IMG/VR virus record: IMGVR_UViG_3300045988_005619
Location: 1-21,157 of that record
DNA length: 21,157 bases
Direction: 5' to 3' (one strand)
Source: a virus
Each line of letters opens with the position of its first letter. The first letter of the stretch is position 1. The notes under the pieces are model-generated. The model had not been told where the DNA came from. It saw only the letters and a program-made list of their open reading frames with translations, and ran no database searches. This document shows positions 1,241 through 21,157 of this stretch, one piece after another. A program made the position numbers and the translations under genes.

Positions 1241-2571
1241 ATGAATAAGCCTGCACCTTTTAATCAAAAGCAGTTGGCTTACCTCAAGAAAACATTTGAT
1301 TGTTGGTTGAATGTACTTGAGGGAGGTTAGGCAAGCGTGGAGGAAAGAACGTACTGAACACGTACGCATTCTGCGTTGCATTAGAAACACATCCGGATAA
1401 ATTCCATTTGATAGCAGGAACGGATACATCATCAGCACGTGTAAATATTGGAGATTGTAATGGATATGGTTTGCAGAACTATTTTGCTAATAGATTCAAA
1501 GTAGGAAAGTATGAAGGTAAAGACTGCTACTACATCAACACAAAGGTTGGTGAAAAGGTTGTATTCTTTGCCGGTGGTGCTAAAAAAGGCTCAGAGAATG
1601 CGATACATGGTTATTCTTATGGAATGGCATATGTAACAGAAGCAAACCTTTGTTGCATTGAGTTTCTACAAGAAGTGATGGATAGAACAATAGCTTCAAG
1701 CAATCGAAAGATATTTCATGATTTAAACCCCAAAGGAAAGAATCATTGGTATTATACTGATTTCTTGAAATATCATGAGGAGCAACAGAATAAAGATTCT
1801 ACATATGGTTACAACTATGGGCATACCACCTTAGTTGATAATTATTCATTAAGTGATGAGCAGATAAGAACGGTCTTAAAATCATACGATAAGAATAGCG
1901 TTTATTACAAAAGAGATATAAAAGGACAAAGGGAAGAAGCCGAAGGACTTGTGTTCCCTTATTTTGCTAATGACTGCAAACCTTACCTATTTAAATATCA
2001 GAGTCTAAAAGAAAAGATGAAAGAACAAGGAAAAAGGTTCAGTCATTTAATCATAGGTGTTGACTTTGGAGACAATGGGTCAAAGTATTCATGGCATTTA
2101 ACAGGGTTTACAAATGATTGGGATTATATGTGGGCACTTGATGAAGGAGACATGGCAAAATCTAATTCCATAGACGCAACAAAGTTCTGCAAAGCGTTTG
2201 TAAGGTTCTATAAGCGTTGTATTGAATGTTACGGATATGTGGAATGGATATTTCCGGACAGTGCTTCTAATACATTAATTAACACGCTTAGAGCTTATTT
2301 CTACGCCGAAGGGCTAGACGGAAGTATAATTGCACCGGTCAAGAAGAATGAGCTAACCGACCGTCCCATAACGGTTGATAGCTTACTTGTTACAGGAAGA
2401 TTGAAGATAGAAGAACATTGTAAGAACTTAATAAACGCATTGAGCGAATTGGTATGGGATAAAAAAAAAGACATTCCAAAAGATGAGAACGTAAACAATA
2501 TCAATGACGATTGGGATTCGTTCTGCTATACATTTATAACCCATAGTGGATATATAGATTTAAGGAGGTAA
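1241..2571 (+). CDS. terL: Terminase large subunit with an interrupted reading frame. The N-terminal 29 codons (1241..1327) end at TAG 1328-1330, and the rest is open from 1321 in the -1 frame
   Basis: ATG at 1241 follows GGTGGTG. The N-terminal piece MNKPAPFNQKQLAYLKKTFDCWLNVLEGG stops at TAG. The other frame continues (G)KRGGKNVLNTYAFCVALETHPDKFHLIAGTD..., which is a Walker-A-like continuation. The ORF-track TTG at 1408 has no SD and would remove the P-loop. The C-terminal nuclease-like region (IIGVDFGDNGS..., NDDWDSFCY) is intact. Confidence 0.7.
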
Positions 2572-2574
2572 GAA

Positions 2575-3978
2575 ATAGAAACATCTAACACACGTAGACC
2601 GTGGTTTCAAAACTACCTTAACGAAAGAGGGTATTTTGTAGATACAAACGCAATTGAAATCATTGAATTGTGTAACAAGTGGTATACGAATACAGAAACA
2701 GAATTTCATACGGCATACACATTAAATAACGAGGAATACACGCTAGACAAAACAGACTTTGCAAAGCGCTTGTGTGAGGATGACGCAAACCTAATTGAAA
2801 TCTTAGATATAAACGCAACAGAGGACAGTGTTACAAATGATATTATTTCAGACATTCTAACAAAGAACAGGTTTGATGTAATGTATAGGAAACAAGTTGA
2901 GCAAATGTCTGCAAACGGAACAGTAGGAGCTTATGTAACTGTATCGAATGCCGAAATTTATGAAGATGGTTCATTTAGTGGAGGAGAAATCAGAATCAAC
3001 TATTGTGATTCAATGAATATCCTCCCATTAACTGTTATCAATGATGAAATTGTGGAAGTTGCTTTCGTTGGGGTAAATTACGAAAAACTAAAAAAAGTAT
3101 ATGTAATGGTCATGTTCTTAAAAGGACAAGACGAAAGATATATTGCAGAAACACATTACTTTAAAGATACAGGCGAAGAAATAAAAGACCGTGCTCAGAT
3201 TGTTCAATTAGATGTTGTAAAGCCGTTTGCAATTATGAGAAACGCAAAGGTAAACAACTTACAAATGCAAGGTTACGGCTTGCCAAAAATTTGGAGCGCA
3301 ATTGCTCCACTGAAAACAATTGATTTAACAATGACAATGTGGAATCGTGATTTGTTGAAATCCGATAAAATCGTTCTTGTGAATGAAGCATTAATGCAGA
3401 AAGACGAGAATGGAAAGATTAAGATGAATCCACAAATGAAAAAGATATTTGTTCAGTTAGGTAGAGATAAGCTTCCGGAAGAAAAAGCTTTATGGCAAGA
3501 ATATAATCCAACAGTAAGAACGGCAGAAGTTGTTCAATCACTAGAAACTGCGTTAAGTATCTTATCTATGATGTTTGGATTTGGTACAAAGAAATATACG
3601 TTTGAAAGTGGAAGAATCGTAACGGCTACAGAATATATCGGTGAGAATCAAGACGCAATGAAGGAAGTAAATTCACAACGTAAAGAATCTACTGCATATA
3701 TTCAAGATATTATTCAAGCGATAGCGTACTTCTACGAATTAACACAAGGAAGAAAGCTTAATATCAATTCATTAGACATTGCAATTGATTATGACGATAC
3801 GTATATCGAGGATAAGCAAAGCACGGCACAAGCGTTAAGGAATGACGCACTAACATTTGATATTCCAAGATTGAAAATCATGTACTTTATGAAGCAATAC
3901 GGCTTTACTGAAGAAGAAGCTACTGAATTATTAAATGAAGAAATTCAAGATGATGGAGAGGAGGATGAAGAAGAATAG
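2575..3978 (+). CDS. Portal protein (SPP1 gp6-like)
   Basis: Position after terL, size of about 467 aa, and an acidic C-terminal tail (DDGEEDEEE). The frame is open from 2572. AAGGAGG lies at 2562-2568, then a 6-nt spacer, then ATA at 2575. The ORF-track TTG at 2668 has no SD. Confidence 0.75.
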   Translation: METSNTRRPWFQNYLNERGYFVDTNAIEIIELCNKWYTNTETEFHTAYTLNNEEYTLDKTDFAKRLCEDDANLIEILDINATEDSVTNDIISDILTKNRFDVMYRKQVEQMSANGTVGAYVTVSNAEIYEDGSFSGGEIRINYCDSMNILPLTVINDEIVEVAFVGVNYEKLKKVYVMVMFLKGQDERYIAETHYFKDTGEEIKDRAQIVQLDVVKPFAIMRNAKVNNLQMQGYGLPKIWSAIAPLKTIDLTMTMWNRDLLKSDKIVLVNEALMQKDENGKIKMNPQMKKIFVQLGRDKLPEEKALWQEYNPTVRTAEVVQSLETALSILSMMFGFGTKKYTFESGRIVTATEYIGENQDAMKEVNSQRKESTAYIQDIIQAIAYFYELTQGRKLNINSLDIAIDYDDTYIEDKQSTAQALRNDALTFDIPRLKIMYFMKQYGFTEEEATELLNEEIQDDGEEDEEE

Positions 3979-4748
3979 CAACTACATATTTTCCATTCGT
4001 CTCAAGAAATGGCGATAGATTAGTGTTATATGACGCTTTCAGAAGATTATTCTCAAGCTATTTCACAAATGGTGTGTTCATAGACGATTCTAGTTCAGAC
4101 CATTTAAGAGTTGAGAAAGCTCAAGGCTTAACATTAACAATTAAAGCAGGACGAGCAAATATTAATGGAGCGTTCTATTGGCAGAAAGATGACGAAACCA
4201 TAACATTAGAAAAGAATAGCGCTACTAAAAACTACAATATTATTCTTAGGTTAAATGATAATGACACATATAGAAACATTACCTTAGTAGCAAGTGATAT
4301 TAACAGTGGAATTACAAGAAGTGATTCTATTTACGATTTGGTATTAGCTACAGTTACGGTAACAGGTAATTCAAATGAAGTTAAAGGTTCAGATATTACA
4401 GATACAAGATTAGATTCAACACGTTGTGGAGCAGTTACAAGCGCAATTAAAAGCGTACAATCGTTGGATTTATTTACCCAAGTTACTGAGTTATTCAAAG
4501 AAATTAAGGCTCAGAATGAATCTGAAATGAACGCAAATAGAACAGAGTTCAATGATTGGTTTGAAACTGTAAAAGATACGTTAGACGCAAATACGGCAGG
4601 AAAACTATCGAACAGAATTTCAAACATTGAAAAGATGATTATGGAGAACCATTTCACTACGATTCTATTAACAGGAAATGGAGAACTAGTAGATGAAAAT
4701 GGTCATGAGATTTTAGCGGATTGGAAATATAAAGTCAAGGAGGAATAG
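3975..4748 (+). CDS. Tail-fibre / upper receptor-binding-complex structural protein
   Basis: The N-terminus (M)ATTYFPFVSRNGDRLVLYDAFRRLFSSYFTNGVF matches the widespread Firmicute prophage fibre N-domain pattern (F..v.GDR.Y.a.dF..yF..f..nGVF). It is followed by a coiled-coil. ATA at 3975 lies 10 nt after GAGGAGG (3958-3964) and overlaps the portal TAG stop as ATAG. The GTG at 4023 has no SD. Confidence 0.6.
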   Translation: MATTYFPFVSRNGDRLVLYDAFRRLFSSYFTNGVFIDDSSSDHLRVEKAQGLTLTIKAGRANINGAFYWQKDDETITLEKNSATKNYNIILRLNDNDTYRNITLVASDINSGITRSDSIYDLVLATVTVTGNSNEVKGSDITDTRLDSTRCGAVTSAIKSVQSLDLFTQVTELFKEIKAQNESEMNANRTEFNDWFETVKDTLDANTAGKLSNRISNIEKMIMENHFTTILLTGNGELVDENGHEILADWKYKVKEE

Positions 4749-4751
4749 AGA

Positions 4752-5660
4752 ATGGCAGGAAGACAAGTAACAGAATTAGACACATTGCCTAGCTTCACGG
4801 ATACAAGTTTATTACCAGTACACAATGGAGCAGGATTAAAAAAAGGAACATTATCGCAATTGGCAAACTATTTAGGAACTAAATTCAGTAATCCAAATTT
4901 ATTGATTAATCCCGATTTTAAAATAAATCAGAGAGGAAAAGCAGAGTATACAAGTGATGGTACAGTAAGATATACGGTAGATAGATGGAGAAGTTTATCT
5001 TTAAATGTAAAGACTGATACAAACGGTATATTACTATCCGCAGACAGTCAGAATGATGATGGCGGATTCATTGCACAGGAATTGGAAAAATCAATTGATT
5101 TAGAAACACTATTTACATTGAAAGTTGGTTCAGTAACCGGAAGTATTGTAGTTTCAGTTATGGATAGTGCGTCTAATGGAAACAATTTAAATATTACAAC
5201 GAGTGGGATTTATTCTATAGGTTTAGCAAACCAAGCTAAAAAAGTAATTATACAAGTTACAAAAGGAAGCTCTTGTAAGATTGAGTGGGCGAAATTAGAA
5301 CAAGGCTCAATTGCTACTCCTTTTGTTGCTCCAAATCCGGCAGAAGAATTAGTGAAATGTGCGCGATTTTTACAAATGATACCGGAAATATACTTTATTC
5401 CGTACGCAAGTACGAGAACGGCGTTTATTAGTGATGGGAGATATTATCAAAGTACAGGTGGTTTATTCCCGGTAGAAATGCGCACGAATCCAACAGTCAC
5501 GTATAGTAATATACATAAAGCCGATGATGAAGTGATTTCTGAAAAAGTTACAAGTGTTGATTCAAATAAACACGGAATTGGTCTTATCGTTATTTGTAAT
5601 AATGCAGGATATTATACATTAAGAATGAAAAACATTGTTGCGGACGCAGAAATTTACTAG
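4752..5660 (+). CDS. Receptor-binding protein / tail fibre with a beta-rich carbohydrate-binding-like C-terminus
   Basis: ATG lies after AAGGAGG. The N-terminal motif QVTELDTLPSFTDTSLLPVHNGAGLKKGTLSQL, followed by NLLINPDFKINQRG, is typical of Gram-positive phage fibre and RBP proteins. Confidence 0.6.
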   Translation: MAGRQVTELDTLPSFTDTSLLPVHNGAGLKKGTLSQLANYLGTKFSNPNLLINPDFKINQRGKAEYTSDGTVRYTVDRWRSLSLNVKTDTNGILLSADSQNDDGGFIAQELEKSIDLETLFTLKVGSVTGSIVVSVMDSASNGNNLNITTSGIYSIGLANQAKKVIIQVTKGSSCKIEWAKLEQGSIATPFVAPNPAEELVKCARFLQMIPEIYFIPYASTRTAFISDGRYYQSTGGLFPVEMRTNPTVTYSNIHKADDEVISEKVTSVDSNKHGIGLIVICNNAGYYTLRMKNIVADAEIY

Positions 5661-5669
5661 GAGGAAGCT

Positions 5670-6014
5670 ATGAACGAACATAAAGTATACGTATCCTTAC
5701 AAGATGGATACATCACATCTATTAATTCAGAAATCTTTTTATCACAAGAAGAAATGTCAACTATGACAGAAATTGACCATGGGAAAGGCGACAAATACGC
5801 ACATGCACAAAGTCAATATCTAGAAAAAGAATTAGTTGATGAGCACGGTAGATACAATTATAAATTTGCAGAAGGTAAAGTGATTGAGGTTGCAGAAGCA
5901 GAAAAGCCAACAATCGAAGAACCAAAAGCAGTACCAACGGAGCAAGAGAAGATTAACGCACAATTAATGCTACAGATTGCACAGTTAAAAGCTCAAATGA
6001 ATGGGGTGAAGTAG
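5670..6014 (+). CDS. Fibre-associated small protein occupying the XkdW position; function unknown
   Basis: ATG lies after TAGGAGGAAG. The protein is 114 aa. It sits between the RBP and an XkdX-like gene, and its C-terminus is coiled-coil (INAQLMLQIAQLKAQ). Confidence 0.5.
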   Translation: MNEHKVYVSLQDGYITSINSEIFLSQEEMSTMTEIDHGKGDKYAHAQSQYLEKELVDEHGRYNYKFAEGKVIEVAEAEKPTIEEPKAVPTEQEKINAQLMLQIAQLKAQMNGVK

Positions 6015-8067: not shown

Positions 8068-8937
8068 ATACCAAATGAAATTGCATTAGCTAAAACGTAT
8101 GTCTCAAATTTGGATGAGGTATATAAGTTAGCTTCAGTAACAGGTGAGTTAAATGCAGACGCTACAATGGTAAGAGCAGGAGCGAACGCAAAAGAAATCA
8201 TCTATCCACAAATTTCTGTTAAAGGTTTAGGAAACTATGATAGAAATAGTGGTTATACATCTAACTCAGTGAAATTAGAATGGAAAACTGCTACATTCGA
8301 CTATGATAGAGGAACTAAAATCTCAGTTGATACACAAGACAATGCAGAATCAATGAATATTGCGTTCGGTAGAGCAGGAGCGGAATTAATGCGTACAAAG
8401 GTTGCACCGGAAGCAGACGCTTACACATTCGCTAAGATTGCAGGCACAACAGGAATCACGAAAGTTTCAGAAGATTATGCAAGTGCAGAAGAGTTCTTGA
8501 GTGCATTATTAAAAGCAGTTACTAAAATGGATGAGGATGAAGTGCCAAGTGAACAACGTATCTTGTATTCTACTCCTACATTATTGAATAGCGTTAAAGC
8601 TTTAGATACTTACAAATCACGTGAAGCTTTACAAGGATTCGCAAAGGTAGTTCCTGTACCTGCTAGTCGTTTCTATACAAAGATTAAATTGTTGAGTGGA
8701 GCAGATACAGAAGAAGAAGGTGGATATACTAAAGCAGAGGATGGACACGTTATTAACTTTTTGATTGTTCATAAACCTTCTGTTATGAAATGGGATAAAC
8801 ACACTGTTTCAAATGTGATTCCTGCAAGCAATAACATTGAATCAGATTCAGATGTATTGAAATATCGTAAGTATGGAATCGTTGATGTATACGCAAATAA
8901 GGTAGCAGGTATTTACTTATCTGCTAGTGCGAAGTAA
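8068..8937 (+). CDS. Major capsid protein
   Basis: It follows the scaffold gene. The frame is open from 8065. AAGGAGG lies at 8052-8058, then a 9-nt spacer, then ATA at 8068. The extended N-terminus (M)PNEIALAKTYVSNLDEVYKLASVTGELN fits the conserved L.AkkYvp.LDEvYk start of TP901-1/Sfi11-type major head proteins. The TTG at 8110 has no SD. Confidence 0.75.
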   Translation: MPNEIALAKTYVSNLDEVYKLASVTGELNADATMVRAGANAKEIIYPQISVKGLGNYDRNSGYTSNSVKLEWKTATFDYDRGTKISVDTQDNAESMNIAFGRAGAELMRTKVAPEADAYTFAKIAGTTGITKVSEDYASAEEFLSALLKAVTKMDEDEVPSEQRILYSTPTLLNSVKALDTYKSREALQGFAKVVPVPASRFYTKIKLLSGADTEEEGGYTKAEDGHVINFLIVHKPSVMKWDKHTVSNVIPASNNIESDSDVLKYRKYGIVDVYANKVAGIYLSASAK

Positions 8938-16522: not shown

Positions 16523-17032
16523 ATGAAAAAGAAAGATGATGGAGGATTTAAGCAAATAGCAAGAAGTATGTATTTTCTAGACAAAATGAATGCAATAGGT
16601 GGTGTAGCCGTTGCCGTATTAACATACGTATTAGGTGAGCATTGGTATTTATTTGCATTCTTCTTATTTATGAATGTAGTGGATTATATTACGGGATGTA
16701 TGAAATCGGCTATCGCTCACAAGCTAAACAGTAATAAAGGATGGATTGGGGTACTGAAAAAGCTAGGATATTGGATTATGATTGTGGTTGCGTTCGCATT
16801 CAGTGTATTCTTGGTGGAAATTGGCGAAATGTTGGGAATTGATTTCCGCGTAACTACATTATTAGGTTGGTTTGTGCTAGCTTCTCTATGTATTAATGAG
16901 GTGCGTAGTATTATTGAGAACCTTGTACAATGTGGATATAGCGTCCCTAGCGTGTTAACTAAAGGATTAGAAGTAGCAGATAAACTCATTAACGAAGAAC
17001 AAGACAATGACGACTCAAGTACCCTGGAATAA
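16523..17032 (+). CDS. Holin (phage_holin_4 / LL-H / TcdE-like family)
   Basis: ATG at 16523 lies 8 nt after AAGGAG (16509-16514). There are three to four hydrophobic helices. It carries the motifs NVVDYITG, GWIGVLKKLGYW and NEVRSIIENLVQCGYSVP, and has a charged C-terminus. Confidence 0.75.
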   Translation: MKKKDDGGFKQIARSMYFLDKMNAIGGVAVAVLTYVLGEHWYLFAFFLFMNVVDYITGCMKSAIAHKLNSNKGWIGVLKKLGYWIMIVVAFAFSVFLVEIGEMLGIDFRVTTLLGWFVLASLCINEVRSIIENLVQCGYSVPSVLTKGLEVADKLINEEQDNDDSSTLE

Positions 17033-17273
17033 GATTATTCTTGAAGAATTCATTAACTTAGCATTATTAACTAAGGATGAAGAAATGATTCTAAGAACTA
17101 GAATATATGGATGGACAGTAAGAGAACAAGCCGATAGATTGGATATGAGTGTTTCTAGCGTGAATAGAATCATTAAACGAATCAAGAATAAGTATGATGA
17201 TGTAGAAAAATATAGCGCAATTCTACCACCTAGAAAAACCAGTAAAAAAGAAACAAATCTAGATGATGATTAA
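17007..17273 (+). CDS. Small sigma-70 region-4-like HTH DNA-binding protein (possible transcription regulator)
   Basis: LTKDEEMILRTRIYGWTVREQADRLDMSVSSVNRIIKRIKNKY fits the region 4.2 / LuxR-like HTH pattern. The ORF overlaps the holin 3' end by 26 nt in another frame. The start is uncertain, because there is no good SD before 17007. Confidence 0.5.
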   Translation: MTTQVPWNKIILEEFINLALLTKDEEMILRTRIYGWTVREQADRLDMSVSSVNRIIKRIKNKYDDVEKYSAILPPRKTSKKETNLDDD

Positions 17274-17297
17274 GAGGTTGAAAAGCCTCTTTTTTTT
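17272..17297 (+). terminator. Rho-independent terminator
   Basis: AAGAGG (17272-17277), loop TTGAAAAG, then CCTCTT (17286-17291), running into a T tract that ends at 17297. Confidence 0.65.
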
Positions 17298-17351
17298 GAC
17301 ATTTATATGATATTAATACGGAAACAAATTGAGATTGACCCTGAATATAAT
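17296..17351 (+). promoter_or_regulatory. Candidate promoter region for the accessory cassette
   Basis: A perfect TTGACA lies at 17296-17301 and a perfect TATAAT at 17346-17351. They are 44 nt apart, so they cannot belong to one sigma-A promoter. Each lacks a good partner at 16-18 nt. Confidence 0.2.
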
Positions 17352-17375
17352 TAGGGGTGTAAAGAGGTGATAGAA

Positions 17376-17801
17376 ATGTATAATCCAATCAATGACAGAA
17401 TTAACAATTTAATGAATCAAAAGCAGATGATTGAATCACAATTACAAAACATTCAACAATTAGCTAACATTCCACCTATTAATATTAACAATCAAATCAC
17501 GCCTAATATGGCATTGAATGATTTCAATGGAAAATGGGTCAACAATGAGCAAGAAGCAAGAAATATGATGGTGAATGGTTTGCCTAGTATTATGCTAGAT
17601 AGAAATGATTCAGTATTCTATATGAAGTCATTAGACGGCAGTTTCAAAAAATACAGATTCCAAGAAGAAACAGAGCCAAAGAAAGACAATATAGAACAAC
17701 GCTTAGACAAGCTAGAAGCTATGATATTAGGCTTAACAAACGGAAATAATATAAATACAATGGCAGAGAAAGAAACACATAGAAAGGAGCTTAAAGCGTG
17801 A
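17376..17801 (+). CDS. Unknown protein: N-terminal coiled-coil, P/N/I-rich linker, small beta-rich domain
   Basis: ATG at 17376 lies 6 nt after GAGGTG (17364-17369). It is the first gene after the terminator. It has no TM segment and no signal peptide. Confidence 0.5.
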   Translation: MYNPINDRINNLMNQKQMIESQLQNIQQLANIPPININNQITPNMALNDFNGKWVNNEQEARNMMVNGLPSIMLDRNDSVFYMKSLDGSFKKYRFQEETEPKKDNIEQRLDKLEAMILGLTNGNNINTMAEKETHRKELKA

Positions 17802-18007
17802 ATCCTTTAATGAATATGATGAACCCTCAACAGATGTTATTGGGTATGTTACAACAAAGAAATCCACAAGCATTTAATCAAGTACAACAATTAATGCGAA
17901 GTGGACAGAATCCCCAAGTATTGCTTAACAATATGATGGGGCAACTAACGCCACAACAGAAACAACAGTTTGAAAATGTGGCTTATCAGTATGGGCTAAA
18001 ACGCTAA
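17798..18007 (+). CDS. Q/N/M-rich 69-aa protein of unknown function
   Basis: GTG at 17798 lies 8 nt after AAAGGAG (17783-17789) and overlaps the upstream stop as GTGA. It contains two internal NPQ...LL..M repeats. Confidence 0.5.
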   Translation: MNPLMNMMNPQQMLLGMLQQRNPQAFNQVQQLMRSGQNPQVLLNNMMGQLTPQQKQQFENVAYQYGLKR

Positions 18008-18031
18008 TTGCGTTGAAAGGAGGAAATATAA

Positions 18032-18643
18032 ATGGAAAGCATGAATGGTATTCAACCAATGTACGATTTAGCAGACAGAAACAACAATGAATGGGGTAGT
18101 GGAAATTGGATTTGGATTATCCTTTTATTCTTCCTGTTTGGTGGAAATTGGGGTAACAATGGCAACCTACAGAATGACGCATTAATGAATCAAGAATTCA
18201 TTAAACGTGATTTATTCAACACAAATCAGAATGTATCTAGCCAAGGTTACCAAAATTCAAGAGATATCTTAGAAAGCCGATACACTACACAATTAGGTTT
18301 ACAGAATCTAGGTCAACAGAGCCAAGAGTGTTGTTGTACAACACAAAGAGCGATTGATGGTGTAAACGCGCAAAGCTTTAAGAATACGTGCGATATTACA
18401 ACTGCAATTCACTCGGAAGCCGAAGCAACAAGAGCATTAATTAATGCTAACACAATGCAAGAGTTGCGTGATAAATTAGCGGATAGAGATCGAGAGCTAT
18501 TGACTACTAATTTCCAATTGAGTCAACAAGCGCAATCTGCGAATATCATTAATACATTGCAACCAACGCCAAAACCTGCATATCTTACTTGTTCACCTTA
18601 TTACGCATACAATATGACAGGTTGCGGATGCAATCAAATCTAG
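18032..18643 (+). CDS. Single-pass membrane protein with a Q/N-rich coiled region and Cys clusters (CCC, GCGC); function unknown
   Basis: ATG lies after AAAGGAGGAAA. The hydrophobic segment NWIWIILLFFLFGG is at about 18100-18145. TGT TGT TGT lies at 18329-18337. The C-terminus is LTCSPYYAYNMTGCGCNQI. Confidence 0.55.
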   Translation: MESMNGIQPMYDLADRNNNEWGSGNWIWIILLFFLFGGNWGNNGNLQNDALMNQEFIKRDLFNTNQNVSSQGYQNSRDILESRYTTQLGLQNLGQQSQECCCTTQRAIDGVNAQSFKNTCDITTAIHSEAEATRALINANTMQELRDKLADRDRELLTTNFQLSQQAQSANIINTLQPTPKPAYLTCSPYYAYNMTGCGCNQI

Positions 18644-18678
18644 CTCGAAAGAGATTAGGCAATAGCCTTTGGATTATA

Positions 18679-18708
18679 GGGTAGTCGAAAGGCTACCCGT
18701 TTATTTTA
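18679..18708 (+). terminator. Rho-independent terminator or attenuator inside the accessory cassette
   Basis: GGGTAGTC (18679-18686), GAAA tetraloop, then GGCTACCC (18691-18698), followed by GTTTATTTTA. Confidence 0.55.
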
Positions 18709-18725
18709 TATAGGAGGAAAAGAAA

Positions 18726-19145
18726 ATGATTAATAGTATAGCAACGGCAATTCAGACTGTATCAAATGGACAAAATGTATTATTTCCAACAGATAGAGTA
18801 AGAACAAAATCTTGTCAATGTGCTTGTAAAGGTTGGCTTGCTCATGATGTAGGTAGTGGACTATTTACATTGACAAAACAAGGAATTTATGAAGTAGAAT
18901 ATACGGCAGATATTACAAGTGAAACAGTAGGAGTTGCTTCTTTAGAATTGGAACAGAACGGAGAAGCAGTAGGAGGAACAGAATCTTCATATAATGTAGC
19001 TACTGTGAGTGCATATGGAAATGTAAGTGGAGTTACATTGATTCAAGTACCTTGTGGAGCTTCTTACACCATCACATTGGTAAATAATAGTGGCTTAGAT
19101 TTATCTGTTCAGAATGCGAATATCATCATTAAGAAATTAGCGTAG
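18726..19145 (+). CDS. BclA C-terminal-domain-like (TNF/C1q-like jelly-roll) protein without a collagen region
   Basis: ATG lies after TAGGAGGAAAAG. The pattern is IQTVSNGQNVLFPT...GSGLFTLTKQGIYEVEYTADITS...ASLELEQNGEAVGGTES...LIQVPCGASYTITLVNNSG...NANIIIKKL. This matches the exosporium BclA/BclB C-terminal domain layout that I recall from Bacillus and Clostridium. Confidence 0.5.
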   Translation: MINSIATAIQTVSNGQNVLFPTDRVRTKSCQCACKGWLAHDVGSGLFTLTKQGIYEVEYTADITSETVGVASLELEQNGEAVGGTESSYNVATVSAYGNVSGVTLIQVPCGASYTITLVNNSGLDLSVQNANIIIKKLA

Positions 19146-19152
19146 GTGTATC

Positions 19153-19590
19153 ATGCAAGAGGTTAGAAAAAGGAATCTAGACCTCTTAACGGAAGCTATG
19201 AGAGGACTAGAAAAAGGATACAATGATTTAGATTTTAGAGTTATGAGCCAAGCTTTAGACAATATCAAAGACATTGATACAATACTAGCTATGAGTGATG
19301 GAAGAACGGCTATAAATTCATTAAAAACAAATGATACAGATATTGAAGGAACGGAAATTGATGACAATATCGCATTAATGAATAATCATTTCAGAAAATA
19401 TATAGAAGCTAAAAAAGAATATCGAAAAGATAACAATGAAATTGATAAGCGGACTTCTATTCGTGAATTAGAAGCTTTTCTTAGTGCTATGTATGGAATT
19501 TTGGAAGAAATGAAAACGTCTAGCGATTTTCAAGAAGAAAGAGAAATGGTAAGAGATAAATTAAGAGAAATGTTCTCAGTATATCAGTGA
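19153..19590 (+). CDS. Acidic, all-helical cytoplasmic protein of unknown function
   Basis: ATG lies after TAGGTG. The protein is 145 aa with no TM segment. It is the last gene of the cassette before a strong terminator. Confidence 0.5.
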   Translation: MQEVRKRNLDLLTEAMRGLEKGYNDLDFRVMSQALDNIKDIDTILAMSDGRTAINSLKTNDTDIEGTEIDDNIALMNNHFRKYIEAKKEYRKDNNEIDKRTSIRELEAFLSAMYGILEEMKTSSDFQEEREMVRDKLREMFSVYQ

Positions 19591-19597
19591 TAAAAAA

Positions 19598-19640
19598 CCT
19601 CTTTTATGTGCTATAATTGGTACATAAAGGAGGATTTTTA
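19598..19640 (+). terminator. Strong rho-independent terminator (14-bp stem)
   Basis: CCTCTTTTATGTGC (19598-19611) pairs with GTACATAAAGGAGG (19620-19633), including 2 G-U pairs. The loop is TATAATTG, and ATTTTTA follows. Confidence 0.7.
19609..19617 (+). promoter_or_regulatory. Extended -10 element TGCTATAAT embedded in the terminator loop; candidate endolysin promoter
   Basis: The TGnTATAAT consensus is matched exactly at 19609-19617. There is no convincing -35, which an extended -10 element can tolerate. Confidence 0.3.
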
Positions 19641-19735
19641 ATAAATTATATTGTCTGATTCAGATAAAGAAAAGTTAGTCGAAACTAGAAATGAAATTCA
19701 AGATTTCTTAGTTAAAAAATTAGGAGGTATAATTC

Positions 19736-19840
19736 ATGGAAGAAAAAGAAGTGAAATTTGAAGAATTATCAAAAGAAGCTCAATCAGAGTTGAGTAACGG
19801 GAAAGAAGAAGGTGAAGATGAATATCATACTCAAGCTTAA
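19736..19840 (+). CDS. 34-aa highly acidic peptide of unknown function
   Basis: ATG at 19736 lies 8 nt after TTAGGAGGT. The product is MEEKEVKFEELSKEAQSELSNGKEEGEDEYHTQA. Its 3' end overlaps the proposed endolysin start by 19 nt. Confidence 0.4.
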   Translation: MEEKEVKFEELSKEAQSELSNGKEEGEDEYHTQA

Positions 19841-20919
19841 CAAATAAATATATTCCTGCTAGTGCAGATAACTATATGCGAGGACGTGGTGGATATAAAG
19901 TATGTAAAATTACACCACACCACATGGCGTGTCAGTGGAGTGCCGAAAGATGTGCTCAATCATTCCAAGTAAGTGGAAGAATGGCTAGTGCAAACTATTG
20001 TATCGGGTCAGATGGAACGATTGTTTCGAATGTTGATGAAGAAAATAGAGCGTGGACATCATCAAATTATTATAATGATTGCCAAGCTATTACGATTGAA
20101 GTTGCAAATGAAACGTGTGCGCCTAATTGGACTATCTCGACTAAAGCATGGAATGCATTGGTAAATTTATGTGTCGATATTTGTAAGAGATACGGATTTA
20201 GATTAAATTACACAGGAAACGCAAATGGAAGTTTGACAGAGCATAGAATGTTTGCAAGTACAAGTTGCCCAGGTCCTTTCCTACACGATAGAATGCCTCA
20301 ATTAGCACAAGAAGTAAATGCTAGATTAGATGGTCAGACTGTAGCACCAAGCGCTCCTAGCACTCCAAGCGCTCCAAGTGGTGAAAAGTATTCAGTCGGT
20401 ACACCTATCTGCACAAATACATTAAGCGTTAACTGCTACGGAACTTCTAAAATCTTAAAAGGGGATTGGAGCGGTTCGATCGGTAGAGTAATTAAAGGTG
20501 CTAAATATCCATATCGTATTGATCGTAATGGGGTAGCGATTGGATGGACAAATGATGTGGGTATTGATACAGACCCTCATACACCAGTTGGAACAACACA
20601 GTCTAGCTCAGAATCTATCGACCAAATCTTGCATGAAGGAAGCTATGTTACATCTGTACATATGAAAATCGGCAATCAAGGCTTAAAGAAGATTGGTGAT
20701 GATTTATGCTGCTACTTATCTCAATTAGGCGGTTGGTTTCCAATTCGTATGGTAGACAAAGTGCCAAATTCAGATGGATATAATGACAATGTATTGCACA
20801 CCACAAATGCAGTTGTCTATGTAACTAGAATAAGAGTTGATGCGGTCAATGTTCAAAAGAATATTGTTAAAATTGGCGGTATTTGGGTTGACCCAACACC
20901 ATTAACAGAAATTGCGTAA
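19822..20919 (+). CDS. Endolysin: N-acetylmuramoyl-L-alanine amidase (amidase_2/PGRP type) with a Pro/Ser linker and C-terminal SH3b-like wall-binding domains
   Basis: It carries the motifs ITPHHMA, ASANYCIG, ENRAWTS, ITIEVANE and EHRMFASTSCPGP. The linker is APSAPSTPSAPSG (about 20344-20382). ATA at 19822 is the first codon after an in-frame TGA and lies 7 nt after AAGGTG (19809-19814). It restores the usual N-terminal segment (M)SYSSLTNKYIPASADNYMRGRGG. The ATG at 19876 has no SD. Confidence 0.8.
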   Translation: MSYSSLTNKYIPASADNYMRGRGGYKVCKITPHHMACQWSAERCAQSFQVSGRMASANYCIGSDGTIVSNVDEENRAWTSSNYYNDCQAITIEVANETCAPNWTISTKAWNALVNLCVDICKRYGFRLNYTGNANGSLTEHRMFASTSCPGPFLHDRMPQLAQEVNARLDGQTVAPSAPSTPSAPSGEKYSVGTPICTNTLSVNCYGTSKILKGDWSGSIGRVIKGAKYPYRIDRNGVAIGWTNDVGIDTDPHTPVGTTQSSSESIDQILHEGSYVTSVHMKIGNQGLKKIGDDLCCYLSQLGGWFPIRMVDKVPNSDGYNDNVLHTTNAVVYVTRIRVDAVNVQKNIVKIGGIWVDPTPLTEIA

Positions 20920-21046
20920 AGTATAAAAATAACACATATAAGTGTCAAAATTGTACAAAATGTGCAAAAATTACAATTAAATATCAATAAAAGTGTCATA
21001 ATTTAAAAAAATGACACAAAACCTTCAACTATTTTTTGTATATTTT

Positions 21047-21070
21047 AGCCTATGATTAAGTTCATAGGCT
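21047..21070. repeat. 9-bp perfect inverted repeat AGCCTATGA / TCATAGGCT with a 6-nt loop
   Basis: Read directly from the sequence. Neither strand has a flanking T tract. Confidence 0.5.
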
Positions 21071-21087
21071 CAGACTGTTGACAAAGT

Positions 21088-21106
21088 GACTGTCGACAGT
21101 CTTTTT
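21088..21106 (+). terminator. Palindrome GACTGTCGACAGTC followed by TTTTT; probable terminator of the late/lysis transcript
   Basis: A perfect 14-nt palindrome lies at 21088-21101, followed by T5. The upstream AGACTGT (21073-21079) could instead pair with ACAGTCT (21096-21102). Confidence 0.45.
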
Positions 21107-21157
21107 AAAATCTGATAGAATATCTGTGGCAGAAACGTACTTCATAAACCCAAAAAT

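Follow-up and report, generated by a model that had tools for sequence, protein, structure and literature searches.

What occupies the DNA between the holin and endolysin genes of the virus in IMG/VR record IMGVR_UViG_3300045988_005619, and what might it do there? We analysed positions 1 to 21,157 of that record, a stretch of 21,157 nucleotides (nt) referred to here as the window, which is the late region of a siphovirus-type prophage. The holin gene (16523-17032; features lie on the plus strand unless stated otherwise) and the endolysin gene (19822-20919) are about 2.8 kb apart in the window and in its closest relatives (group 1, below), being neither adjacent nor overlapping. Between them we find a gene for a helix-turn-helix (HTH) protein, three terminator-like hairpins, five genes that we call A to E, and a 34-codon open reading frame (ORF), s34. 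The original prediction had listed these elements at or near the positions that we find, and had taken them for a discrete accessory cassette. The comparison of many related loci bears this out: that genes A-E form a conserved, mobile phage operon, inserted here in the lysis region and with a regulator gene linked to it in most loci, is well supported.

The recurrence of the gene order carries this conclusion. A first IMG/VR scan for protein C gave 80 loci, and tblastn with all window proteins found the order A-B-C-D in essentially all of them. Across 188 loci, which make up 40 lineages at <85% C identity (some counts below use 33 non-redundant lineages), the order A-B-C-D followed by either E or a DUF7841 protein (G) is kept in nearly all. 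Thus the five families are syntenic, the answer to whether they co-occur elsewhere is strongly positive, and the possibility of homologues that are nowhere linked is clearly contradicted. The commonest architectures are A-B-C-D-E (48 loci), A-B-C-D-G (40), HTH-A-B-C-D-E (21) and A-C-D (16), with minor variants making up the rest and an optional small gene, F, in some loci. Group 1 (93-98% C identity to the window) has the same holin and HTH genes; group 2 (about 75%) has the same cassette with E, s34 and lysin but different upstream genes; and group 3 (about 71%) lacks E. Using translations and iterative profile searches, we found the same order in the Clostridium perfringens phages CPD1, HMD-PC1 and vB_CpeS-17DYC, and it is also that of lemur-gut Dulem viruses, Butyrivibrio phage Ceridwen and a set of roughly 100-kb phages. 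The crAss-like phage cr1_1 and the Bacteroides uniformis phage C3_41T2LP carry a partial cassette of C and DUF7841, and profile searches found no A, B or D in either. Clustering of the C family leaves 5065 members at 90% and 1207 clusters when the threshold is 50% identity; the best 150 of these 1207 clusters are proteins of 62-299 aa (amino acids), mostly about 200-250 aa, with no large domain fusions. Full-text searches of the published literature gave no description of the cassette or of DUF7841, blastn of the block against GenBank phages gave just two short matches, and an Rfam scan of the block matched no family.

The surroundings of the cassette vary far more than its contents. It lies between holin and lysin in the window and group 1; between an XhlA-like/transmembrane gene pair and a second holin, s34 and lysin in group 2; after a tail protein and facing convergent replication genes in group 3; between lysis genes and giant tail-fibre genes in the roughly 100-kb phages; after a holin and an Rz-like gene in cr1_1; and among antirepressor, recombination or replication genes in the C. 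perfringens, Dulem and Bacteroides phages. Among the three nearest genes on each side in the 40 lineages, the upstream holin, endolysin and XhlA families have 2 members each, and the downstream neighbours are heterogeneous, comprising convergent DNA-metabolism genes, endolysin families of 3-4 members each and integrases (3). Therefore the splitting of the lysis genes belongs to the window lineage and a few more besides; it is not a property of the module, which behaves as a self-contained unit inserting at module boundaries. In the group-2 locus L032, the HTH gene is preceded by genes for an XhlA-like protein and a small transmembrane protein (5420-5936), and s34 and lysin are preceded by the gene for a 75-aa membrane protein (8685-8912) that appears holin-like from its sequence. 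The group-2 cassette thus splits two sets of lysis-associated genes. In crAss-like Suoliviridae, the DUF7841 gene stands right after a holin and an Rz/LysB-like gene, with or without an adjoining C homologue (cr6_1, 3412-5037 of locus L106; cr1_1, 2529-5869 of locus L086); GenBank labels on genes of this region include 'sigma factor/ubiquitin-like' and 'spike protein/glycoprotein'. The 'virion structural protein' beside DUF7841 in cr6_1 was tested as a C homologue and is not one.

The carriers, too, come from very different hosts. Among cellular sources of close relatives, only Holdemanella biformis (77% identity) is named, and the labels of other genome matches are Solobacterium, Waltera, Anaerofustis, Phascolarctobacterium, Megasphaera and one metagenome-assembled genome (MAG) of Bacteroidales, although some MAG labels may be binning errors. 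Matches among GenBank phages include many Suoliviridae crAss-like phages, the isolated B. uniformis phage and predicted Methanomassiliicoccales viruses. In one of the latter (Caudoviricetes sp. vir215, locus L108, 4653-5534), a C-family protein with the CCC motif described below has a reverse transcriptase and a tail protein of phrog_5302 as neighbours; the phrog_5302 family also precedes the cassette in group 3, and cr6_1 has a tail protein and a reverse transcriptase ahead of its holin. The window lineage and group 2 are temperate, with an integrase and an XRE repressor 1-3 kb downstream. No integrase was seen for the cassette-bearing crAss-like and roughly 100-kb phages within the stretches examined.

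How might the cassette be controlled? The HTH gene (17007-17273) encodes an 88-aa, sigma-region-4-like protein, and its start overlaps the 3' end of the holin gene by 26 nt. The protein scores 27.1 bits against HTH_23, above the cut-off of 24.6; 23.5 bits against Sigma70_r4_2, slightly below the cut-off of 25.7; and 26.4 bits against TIGR02937, for which the cut-off is 42.9. Sigma-factor families of PHROG (E about 1e-4) and the NCBIfam 'positive control sigma-like factor' also match it, and across the HTH proteins the PHROG matches include both sigma factors and a Q-like antiterminator family. Sigma regions 2 and 3 were not found in the 88-aa protein, all matches falling at the C-terminal (region-4) end of the profiles. 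Of 174 loci, 129 have a gene for a small HTH protein of this family (77-110 aa) directly before gene A, as do 16 of the 33 non-redundant lineages. When the three nearest upstream genes of the 40 lineages are assigned to PHROGs, the commonest are likewise sigma-like (phrog_1740, n=8; phrog_3512, n=4; phrog_36, n=3). We regard the HTH protein as a candidate dedicated regulator of the cassette. Since its gene in the window overlaps that of the holin and shows no separate promoter signal, the regulator should be made together with the late proteins. Six loci representing lineages without the HTH gene (L092, L098, L164, L175, L185 and L186) have a recurrent gene for a 125-147-aa protein just upstream of A, with the C-terminal pattern '...PD.SF.LDEL....SL.EL..LMPFI'; it may correspond to phrog_1401, of which the upstream neighbours include 6 members.

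The intergenic region 3' of the HTH gene has a recurrent order of elements: a hairpin, two to four repeats of about 11 bp, a -10-like box about 28 nt further on and a strong ribosome-binding site. In the window the repeats are two tandem 11-bp direct copies, TTGACATTTAT and ATGATATTAAT (17296-17317), placed about 28 nt upstream of a conserved TATAAT (17346-17351) whose columns are invariant in the intergenic alignment of groups 1 and 2, and which is followed by the ribosome-binding site AAAGAGGTG (17361-17369). The promoter-like hexamers of the original prediction hold up to the extent of this TATAAT; a consensus scan in front of gene A gave no canonical -35/-10 pair. The repeat units differ by lineage while standing in two to four tandem copies at the equivalent place, being GGGTATTTTAT, GAGTATTATTC and GAGTATTAAAT in group 2, four copies of ATAGGGAATAT in L136, and GATACTA-type units in group 3. 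Because a repeat search did not report such short 11-bp repeats, we used the base autocorrelation of 64 upstream regions, <70% identical to one another, tested against shuffles. This peaked sharply at lag 11 (z = 8.3), with a further peak at lag 22 (z = 5.8), and was flat at lags 9, 10 and 13; the coding DNA of gene C, used as a control, had no lag-11 peak. The repeats are putative binding sites for the HTH protein.

Terminators set off the block on both sides, as had been proposed. The 5.6-kb region contains 8 terminator-like sites on both strands, compared with 2.0 +/- 1.4 in shuffles. Three plus-strand hairpins with T-runs are of particular concern here: T1 (17272-17297, hairpin 17272-17291), right behind the HTH stop codon; T2 (18679-18708, hairpin 18679-18698), in the spacer between C and D; and T3 (19598-19640, hairpin 19598-19633), a strong terminator with a 16 bp stem past the last cassette gene. 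They are conserved among relatives. L032, with a C about 75% identical, has hairpins at all three equivalent positions and a T2 that is one base pair longer; the T1 position is occupied in group-2 relatives, and the T3 position in L032 and L014. Among lineages at large, a hairpin with a T-run occurs upstream of A in 16/33, in the C-D spacer in 20/33 (with sequences unrelated between lineages) and past the last cassette gene in 17/40, compared with 58/400 (14.5%) of random 160-nt control windows. T2 is a probable attenuator.

The five proteins have few relatives of known kind. All five genes carry strong ribosome-binding sites, and reading the protein sequences revealed no signal peptide in any of A-E. 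Gene A (17376-17801), always first in the cassette, most likely starts at the ATG at 17376, which the intergenic alignment supports over the GTG at 17367. Its product has a Q/N/Y-rich N-terminus, a conserved beta-rich core of ~55 aa and a C-terminal coiled coil, and gave no Pfam, NCBIfam, PADLOC or PDB sequence match. Gene B (17798-18007), whose GTG start overlaps the A stop (GTGA), encodes a Met/Gln/Asn-rich basic miniprotein of 69 aa (isoelectric point 10.4) and holds the second position in the C. perfringens phages and Dulem virus 39 as well. The C. perfringens homologue of B has only sub-threshold matches, to the SurA-N and trigger-factor-C chaperone domains, which we treat as a weak lead. 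A resemblance of B to GerQ is compositional only: with no Pfam or NCBIfam match, B is not a member of that type.

Protein C (18032-18643) has the following layout. A short acidic N-terminal tail is followed by a Trp-flanked hydrophobic stretch of ~15-17 residues (about 25-41), an invariant EFIKRD, a unit with an invariant CCC, a helix of ~60 residues, a P-rich linker and a terminal Cys cluster. Cys120, His127, Cys187 and Cys200 are conserved, and CCC is invariant across the homologues from all hosts. The AlphaFold2 (AF2) monomer, built from a 36-sequence alignment, has a predicted local distance difference test score (pLDDT) of 48, with helices predicted at 26-36 and 113-173. C matched no Pfam family at E <= 0.1, no relevant NCBIfam family and no PDB relative, and it is not a member of the ExsY, CotY or CdeC families. 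In some homologues (P0072, P0076, P0091, P0092 and others; columns 115-143 of alignment A1) a unit of ~29 aa, 'RYTTQLGLQNLGQQ..CCC.TQ.EI', is duplicated, giving two CCC motifs.

Protein D (18726-19145, 139 aa) is a stand-alone jelly roll of the TNF/C1q type, belonging to the BclA C-terminal domain family. It scores 38.6 bits against Pfam BclA_C (PF18573), where the cut-off is 38, and PF18573 is precomputed for most of 101 D homologues. Its AF2 model is confident (pLDDT 92.2; predicted template modelling score 0.86), and the best Foldseek matches in the PDB are F-BclA, BclA, BxpB and ExsFA (template modelling score about 0.75, probability 1.0, roughly 21% identity), with TNF ligands, C1q and phage fibre knobs (a cyanophage tail fibre and the phi812 spike) among the further matches. 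The BFVD matches are headed by stand-alone ~140-aa proteins of uncultured gut phages, the others being distal knobs of viral fibres. The description of D as BclA-like therefore stands for its fold and for PF18573; it fails for the exosporium glycoprotein class, in that the jelly roll begins at residue 2 and there is no stalk of collagen-like GXY repeats. Protein E (19153-19590) is acidic and helical (isoelectric point 4.8), and its slot is filled in other lineages by the DUF7841 protein. By hhalign, no homology is detectable between E and DUF7841, or between D and an alternative D' family. PDB profile searches with A, C, DUF7841 and D' gave only sub-threshold coiled-coil, EF-hand or unrelated matches; PADLOC-DB gave no match for A-E, s34, F, DUF7841 or D', and one for the HTH protein at E = 0.006, treated as not significant. 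For A, B, C and E we thus have no relatives among spore proteins, defence proteins or PDB sequences.

Putting these elements together, we tentatively read the cassette as a mobile operon expressed very late and in graded amounts, in which C and D, helped by A and B, build an envelope assembly, attached to the membrane and perhaps cross-linked, near the time of lysis; we would give this reading nearly, but not quite, an even chance. The HTH protein would be made from the late operon's 3' end, the gene overlap being observed and the co-expression being what we infer from it. Late transcription would end at T1. The HTH protein would then bind the phased 11-bp repeats and either activate a promoter with only a -10 element or antiterminate in the manner of Q, a step suggested by the recurrent HTH linkage and by repeats that differ between lineages. 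The resulting very-late transcript would cover A-B-C, with a fraction passing T2 into D-E, and T3 into the s34-coupled endolysin with its ATA start (below), so that the C-D hairpin would set a ratio of high A-B-C to low D-E. C would be anchored by its one hydrophobic segment, and D would supply a TNF/C1q-type knob. More speculatively, A and B (the latter Met-rich) probably act as partners in assembly or as holdases, and the product may be a membrane-attached stalk-and-knob assembly, possibly cross-linked by Cys or metal, that appears just before lysis and might act on the envelope in release, exclusion or lysis control.

Several observations weigh against this reading. No -35 element is recognisable in front of A, and the HTH gene is not directly upstream in half of the non-redundant lineages. 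The AF2 model of C is unreliable, and too poor to be searched by fold. A very-late role in all carriers also sits badly with those phages in which early genes surround the cassette, and host labels taken from MAG bins and predicted archaeal viruses may be wrong. A bolder version, which we consider unlikely to hold in full, is of an operon common to much of the gut virome, which its own sigma-region-4-like factor, acting on helically phased 11-bp operators, turns on as infection ends, and whose products build a Cys- or metal-cross-linked membrane stalk-and-knob in bacterial hosts of several phyla and possibly in archaea.

Comparison with known systems clarifies what is and is not familiar here. 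In the control of late genes by lambda-type Q and by RinA/ArpU-type, sigma-region-4-like late activators, a small regulator acts with a terminator and a regulated late unit that holds the lysis genes. The arrangement in the window appears similar, with a terminator and a presumably regulated promoter region behind a small regulator gene of the phage, but it differs in that the regulator would control a five-gene cassette instead of the whole late operon, is only 88 aa long and faces a putative tandem 11-bp operator. Another likeness is to the pathogenicity locus (PaLoc) of C. difficile, where cargo genes sit in a phage-derived cassette of the TcdE holin and an endolysin remnant, together with a dedicated small sigma factor, TcdR. 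Here too we find, in order, a TcdE-family holin, a sigma-like regulator, cargo without signal peptides and an endolysin, and by analogy the cassette cargo could be released by the lysis machinery. Unlike in the PaLoc, the cargo is not toxin-related, the regulator is not a full group-5 sigma factor, and holin and lysin are not general partners of the cassette.

For the proteins, the nearest structural parallels are to the Bacillus exosporium set (ExsY/CotY, ExsFA/BxpB and BclA/F-BclA). D shares their jelly-roll fold and has its best structural matches among them, and the resemblance to ExsFA extends to a stand-alone protein of ~140 aa with a Cys-rich partner, both without a signal peptide. Against this, D lacks collagen repeats; C and B are unrelated in sequence to ExsY, CotY, CdeC and GerQ; and the cassette genes are phage-borne, in hosts that are mostly non-sporulating or Gram-negative. 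C is also like an Rz-type i-spanin in having an N-terminal membrane segment, a coiled coil and conserved cysteines, and C and D taken together resemble a TNF-family ligand, a type II membrane protein with anchor, stalk and TNF-like head. Unlike for spanins, reading the cassette ORFs revealed no lipoprotein partner or lipobox ORF, the closest hosts are monoderm Erysipelotrichaceae, and cr1_1 has an Rz-like gene besides the cassette. Unlike in either TNF ligands or spanins, D is a separate polypeptide without an export signal, and there is no sequence similarity to them. We could not assign the cassette to any known kind of phage system, although it could still be a variant of fibre assembly or of exclusion.

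Of the other ways to explain the cassette, one is that it encodes virion parts: a fibre or decoration in which C is a coiled-coil stalk, D its distal TNF-like knob and A, B and E assembly factors, all expressed as structural late genes. The fold of D is, in viral structure libraries, otherwise that of the distal knob of tail fibres, whiskers and collagen-like fibres; the ribosome-binding sites are strong and no signal peptides are seen; the cassette often stands beside tail-fibre or diversity-generating retroelement genes and lysis genes; and past Dit and Tal no receptor-binding protein is obvious in the window. Yet a highly conserved C is common to siphoviruses, a phage that bears a podovirus name, crAss-like phages and roughly 100-kb phages, and because these have unrelated virion genes, an attachment partner in the virion could hardly have been conserved. 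The presence of the cassette among early or recombination genes in several phages, its dedicated regulator and terminator insulation, and the membrane-type hydrophobic segment of C also count against virion parts, which we consider a rather unlikely explanation. Quite unlikely, in our view, is a moron expressed from the prophage, giving the lysogen some benefit at the membrane such as superinfection exclusion. This would suit a terminator-bounded block with a possible promoter of its own, the position near the integrase end of temperate genomes, the mobility of the cassette between phages and the membrane-type segment of C, but not a regulator gene that overlaps the holin gene and lacks its own promoter signal, nor carriers of the crAss-like and roughly 100-kb kinds that show no integrase in the stretches examined, nor the failure of known defence families to match. 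Neither is the composition foreign: the block has a GC fraction of 0.30-0.37, the same as the remaining window. These points leave the lysogenic-conversion moron of the original prediction doubtful, and a role confined to the lysogen is unlikely.

Two further explanations concern lysis and sporulation. If the cassette were a lysis-timing device, the terminators, HTH protein and s34 would delay or limit endolysin relative to holin, and A-E would modulate the holin or the membrane. The window does place the endolysin behind three terminators, with a weak ATA start dependent on coupling to s34, and the cassette adjoins holin, XhlA-like, Rz/LysB-like or lysin genes in several unrelated lineages. 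Lysis genes are, however, immediate neighbours in only a minority of the 40 lineages, group 2 has its second holin, s34 and lysin as a normal unit past the cassette, and the cassette is common to phages of walled and wall-less hosts, all of which makes lysis timing very unlikely to be its purpose. The original prediction had itself raised, as a speculation, a module that remodels the spore coat or exosporium of a spore former. That D is structurally closest to F-BclA, BclA, BxpB and ExsFA, that C is Cys-rich like ExsY and CotY, and that some members occur in phages of the spore former C. perfringens would fit such a role. Holdemanella, Megasphaera, Phascolarctobacterium and Bacteroides, however, are non-sporulating, H. 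biformis being the closest named host, and since several hosts do not sporulate the spore hypothesis is not a general explanation; some carriers are assigned to Negativicutes and Bacteroides and others are crAss-like phages or predicted archaeal viruses, no spore-protein or spore-coat family matches B or C, and D has no collagen-like region. The idea is already largely refuted by host range, and we consider it extremely improbable. We therefore return to a late, membrane-attached assembly as the reading that we tentatively favour for the cassette.

The remaining element between holin and endolysin proved to belong elsewhere. The 34-aa acidic ORF s34 (19736-19840), which has a strong ribosome-binding site, had been counted with the accessory block; it is present and most likely translated, but it is part of the endolysin module and not of the cassette. 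Translation is indicated by 13 different protein variants among 32 sequences and by a pN/pS (ratio of nonsynonymous to synonymous polymorphism) of 0.39 over the first 24 codons, which lie upstream of the endolysin ribosome-binding site. The s34 stop lies 5 codons into the endolysin ORF, and in one relative the s34 stop and endolysin start overlap as TAATG. The endolysin itself has an Amidase_2 domain (PF01510) and a C-terminal wall-binding part, and its homology begins at 19822, upstream of the first ATG (19876), with the phrog_7698 alignment starting at residue 3 of the ORF translated from 19822. The codon at this start position is ATA in the window and ATG or GTG in relatives. As two independent human-gut metagenome contigs are identical in sequence to the window, the ATA is not an assembly error; a frameshift or sequencing error at the endolysin start was considered too, and is ruled out by the relatives' ATG or GTG at exactly this place together with the two identical contigs. 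The ATA start and the s34 overlap suggest translational coupling with a deliberately weak initiation of endolysin.

Further, s34 occurs only alongside the Amidase_2 catalytic domain, and is therefore an upstream ORF coupled to the endolysin and lying outside the accessory block. Those members of the window lineage that have a different lysin catalytic domain lack s34 (L006, L012 8585-9370; L014 8699-10354). Their alternative lysins have 261 or 551 aa, with the C-terminal wall-binding part unchanged, and the 261-aa form looks like a CHAP-type enzyme from its N-terminal sequence. The catalytic domain and s34 are thus swapped together as a single module.

Other features of the window can be summarised briefly. 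It codes for the small and large terminase subunits (TerS and TerL), portal, major head protein and connectors, and for a tape measure protein of 839 aa, Dit and a Sipho_Gp37-type tail protein. These last three directly precede the holin, a TcdE-type Phage_holin_4_1 protein (PF05105, E = 5e-32; phrog_199 holin) and the last recognisable late-operon gene before the block. Amid the head genes (4752-6014) are a tail-fibre-like gene (phrog_4492) and a small partner (phrog_24451), and past Dit and Tal the window shows no other receptor-binding candidate; a homologous fibre-like pair (39% identity) stands just before the lysis region in group 2 (L032, 4050-5284). Directly past the endolysin stop is a strong minus-strand promoter-like site, TTGACA-17-TATACT (20948-20920), followed by two hairpins, around 21050-21070 and 21088-21101. 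Together, the site and hairpins (20920-21157) may mark the border of the lysogeny module, the integrase and XRE repressor of relatives lying 2-3 kb beyond.

For the annotation of this and related genomes, the 34-aa ORF and the ATA start belong to the control of endolysin translation, and the idea of a spore-surface function is dropped. The cassette itself offers four families without annotation, one DUF and one family with an exosporium-type TNF-like fold. If our reading is right, gut phages that have no virion or replication genes in common exchange a conserved five-gene operon, usually together with a regulator gene, across hosts that span Bacillota, Negativicutes, Bacteroidota and perhaps methanogen-related archaea. 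Were the bolder stalk-and-knob version also true, the operon would represent a new class of phage-made structure for the cell envelope or for release, following the building logic of ExsY, ExsF and BclA. The system is tractable, in that cultured phages carry all or part of the cassette (the C. perfringens phages, Butyrivibrio phage Ceridwen and Bacteroides phage C3_41T2LP), and the HTH protein and its 11-bp repeats make up a simple predicted regulatory switch. A function for the cassette would account for part of the unannotated genes of gut phages, and could reveal a new envelope process in late infection.

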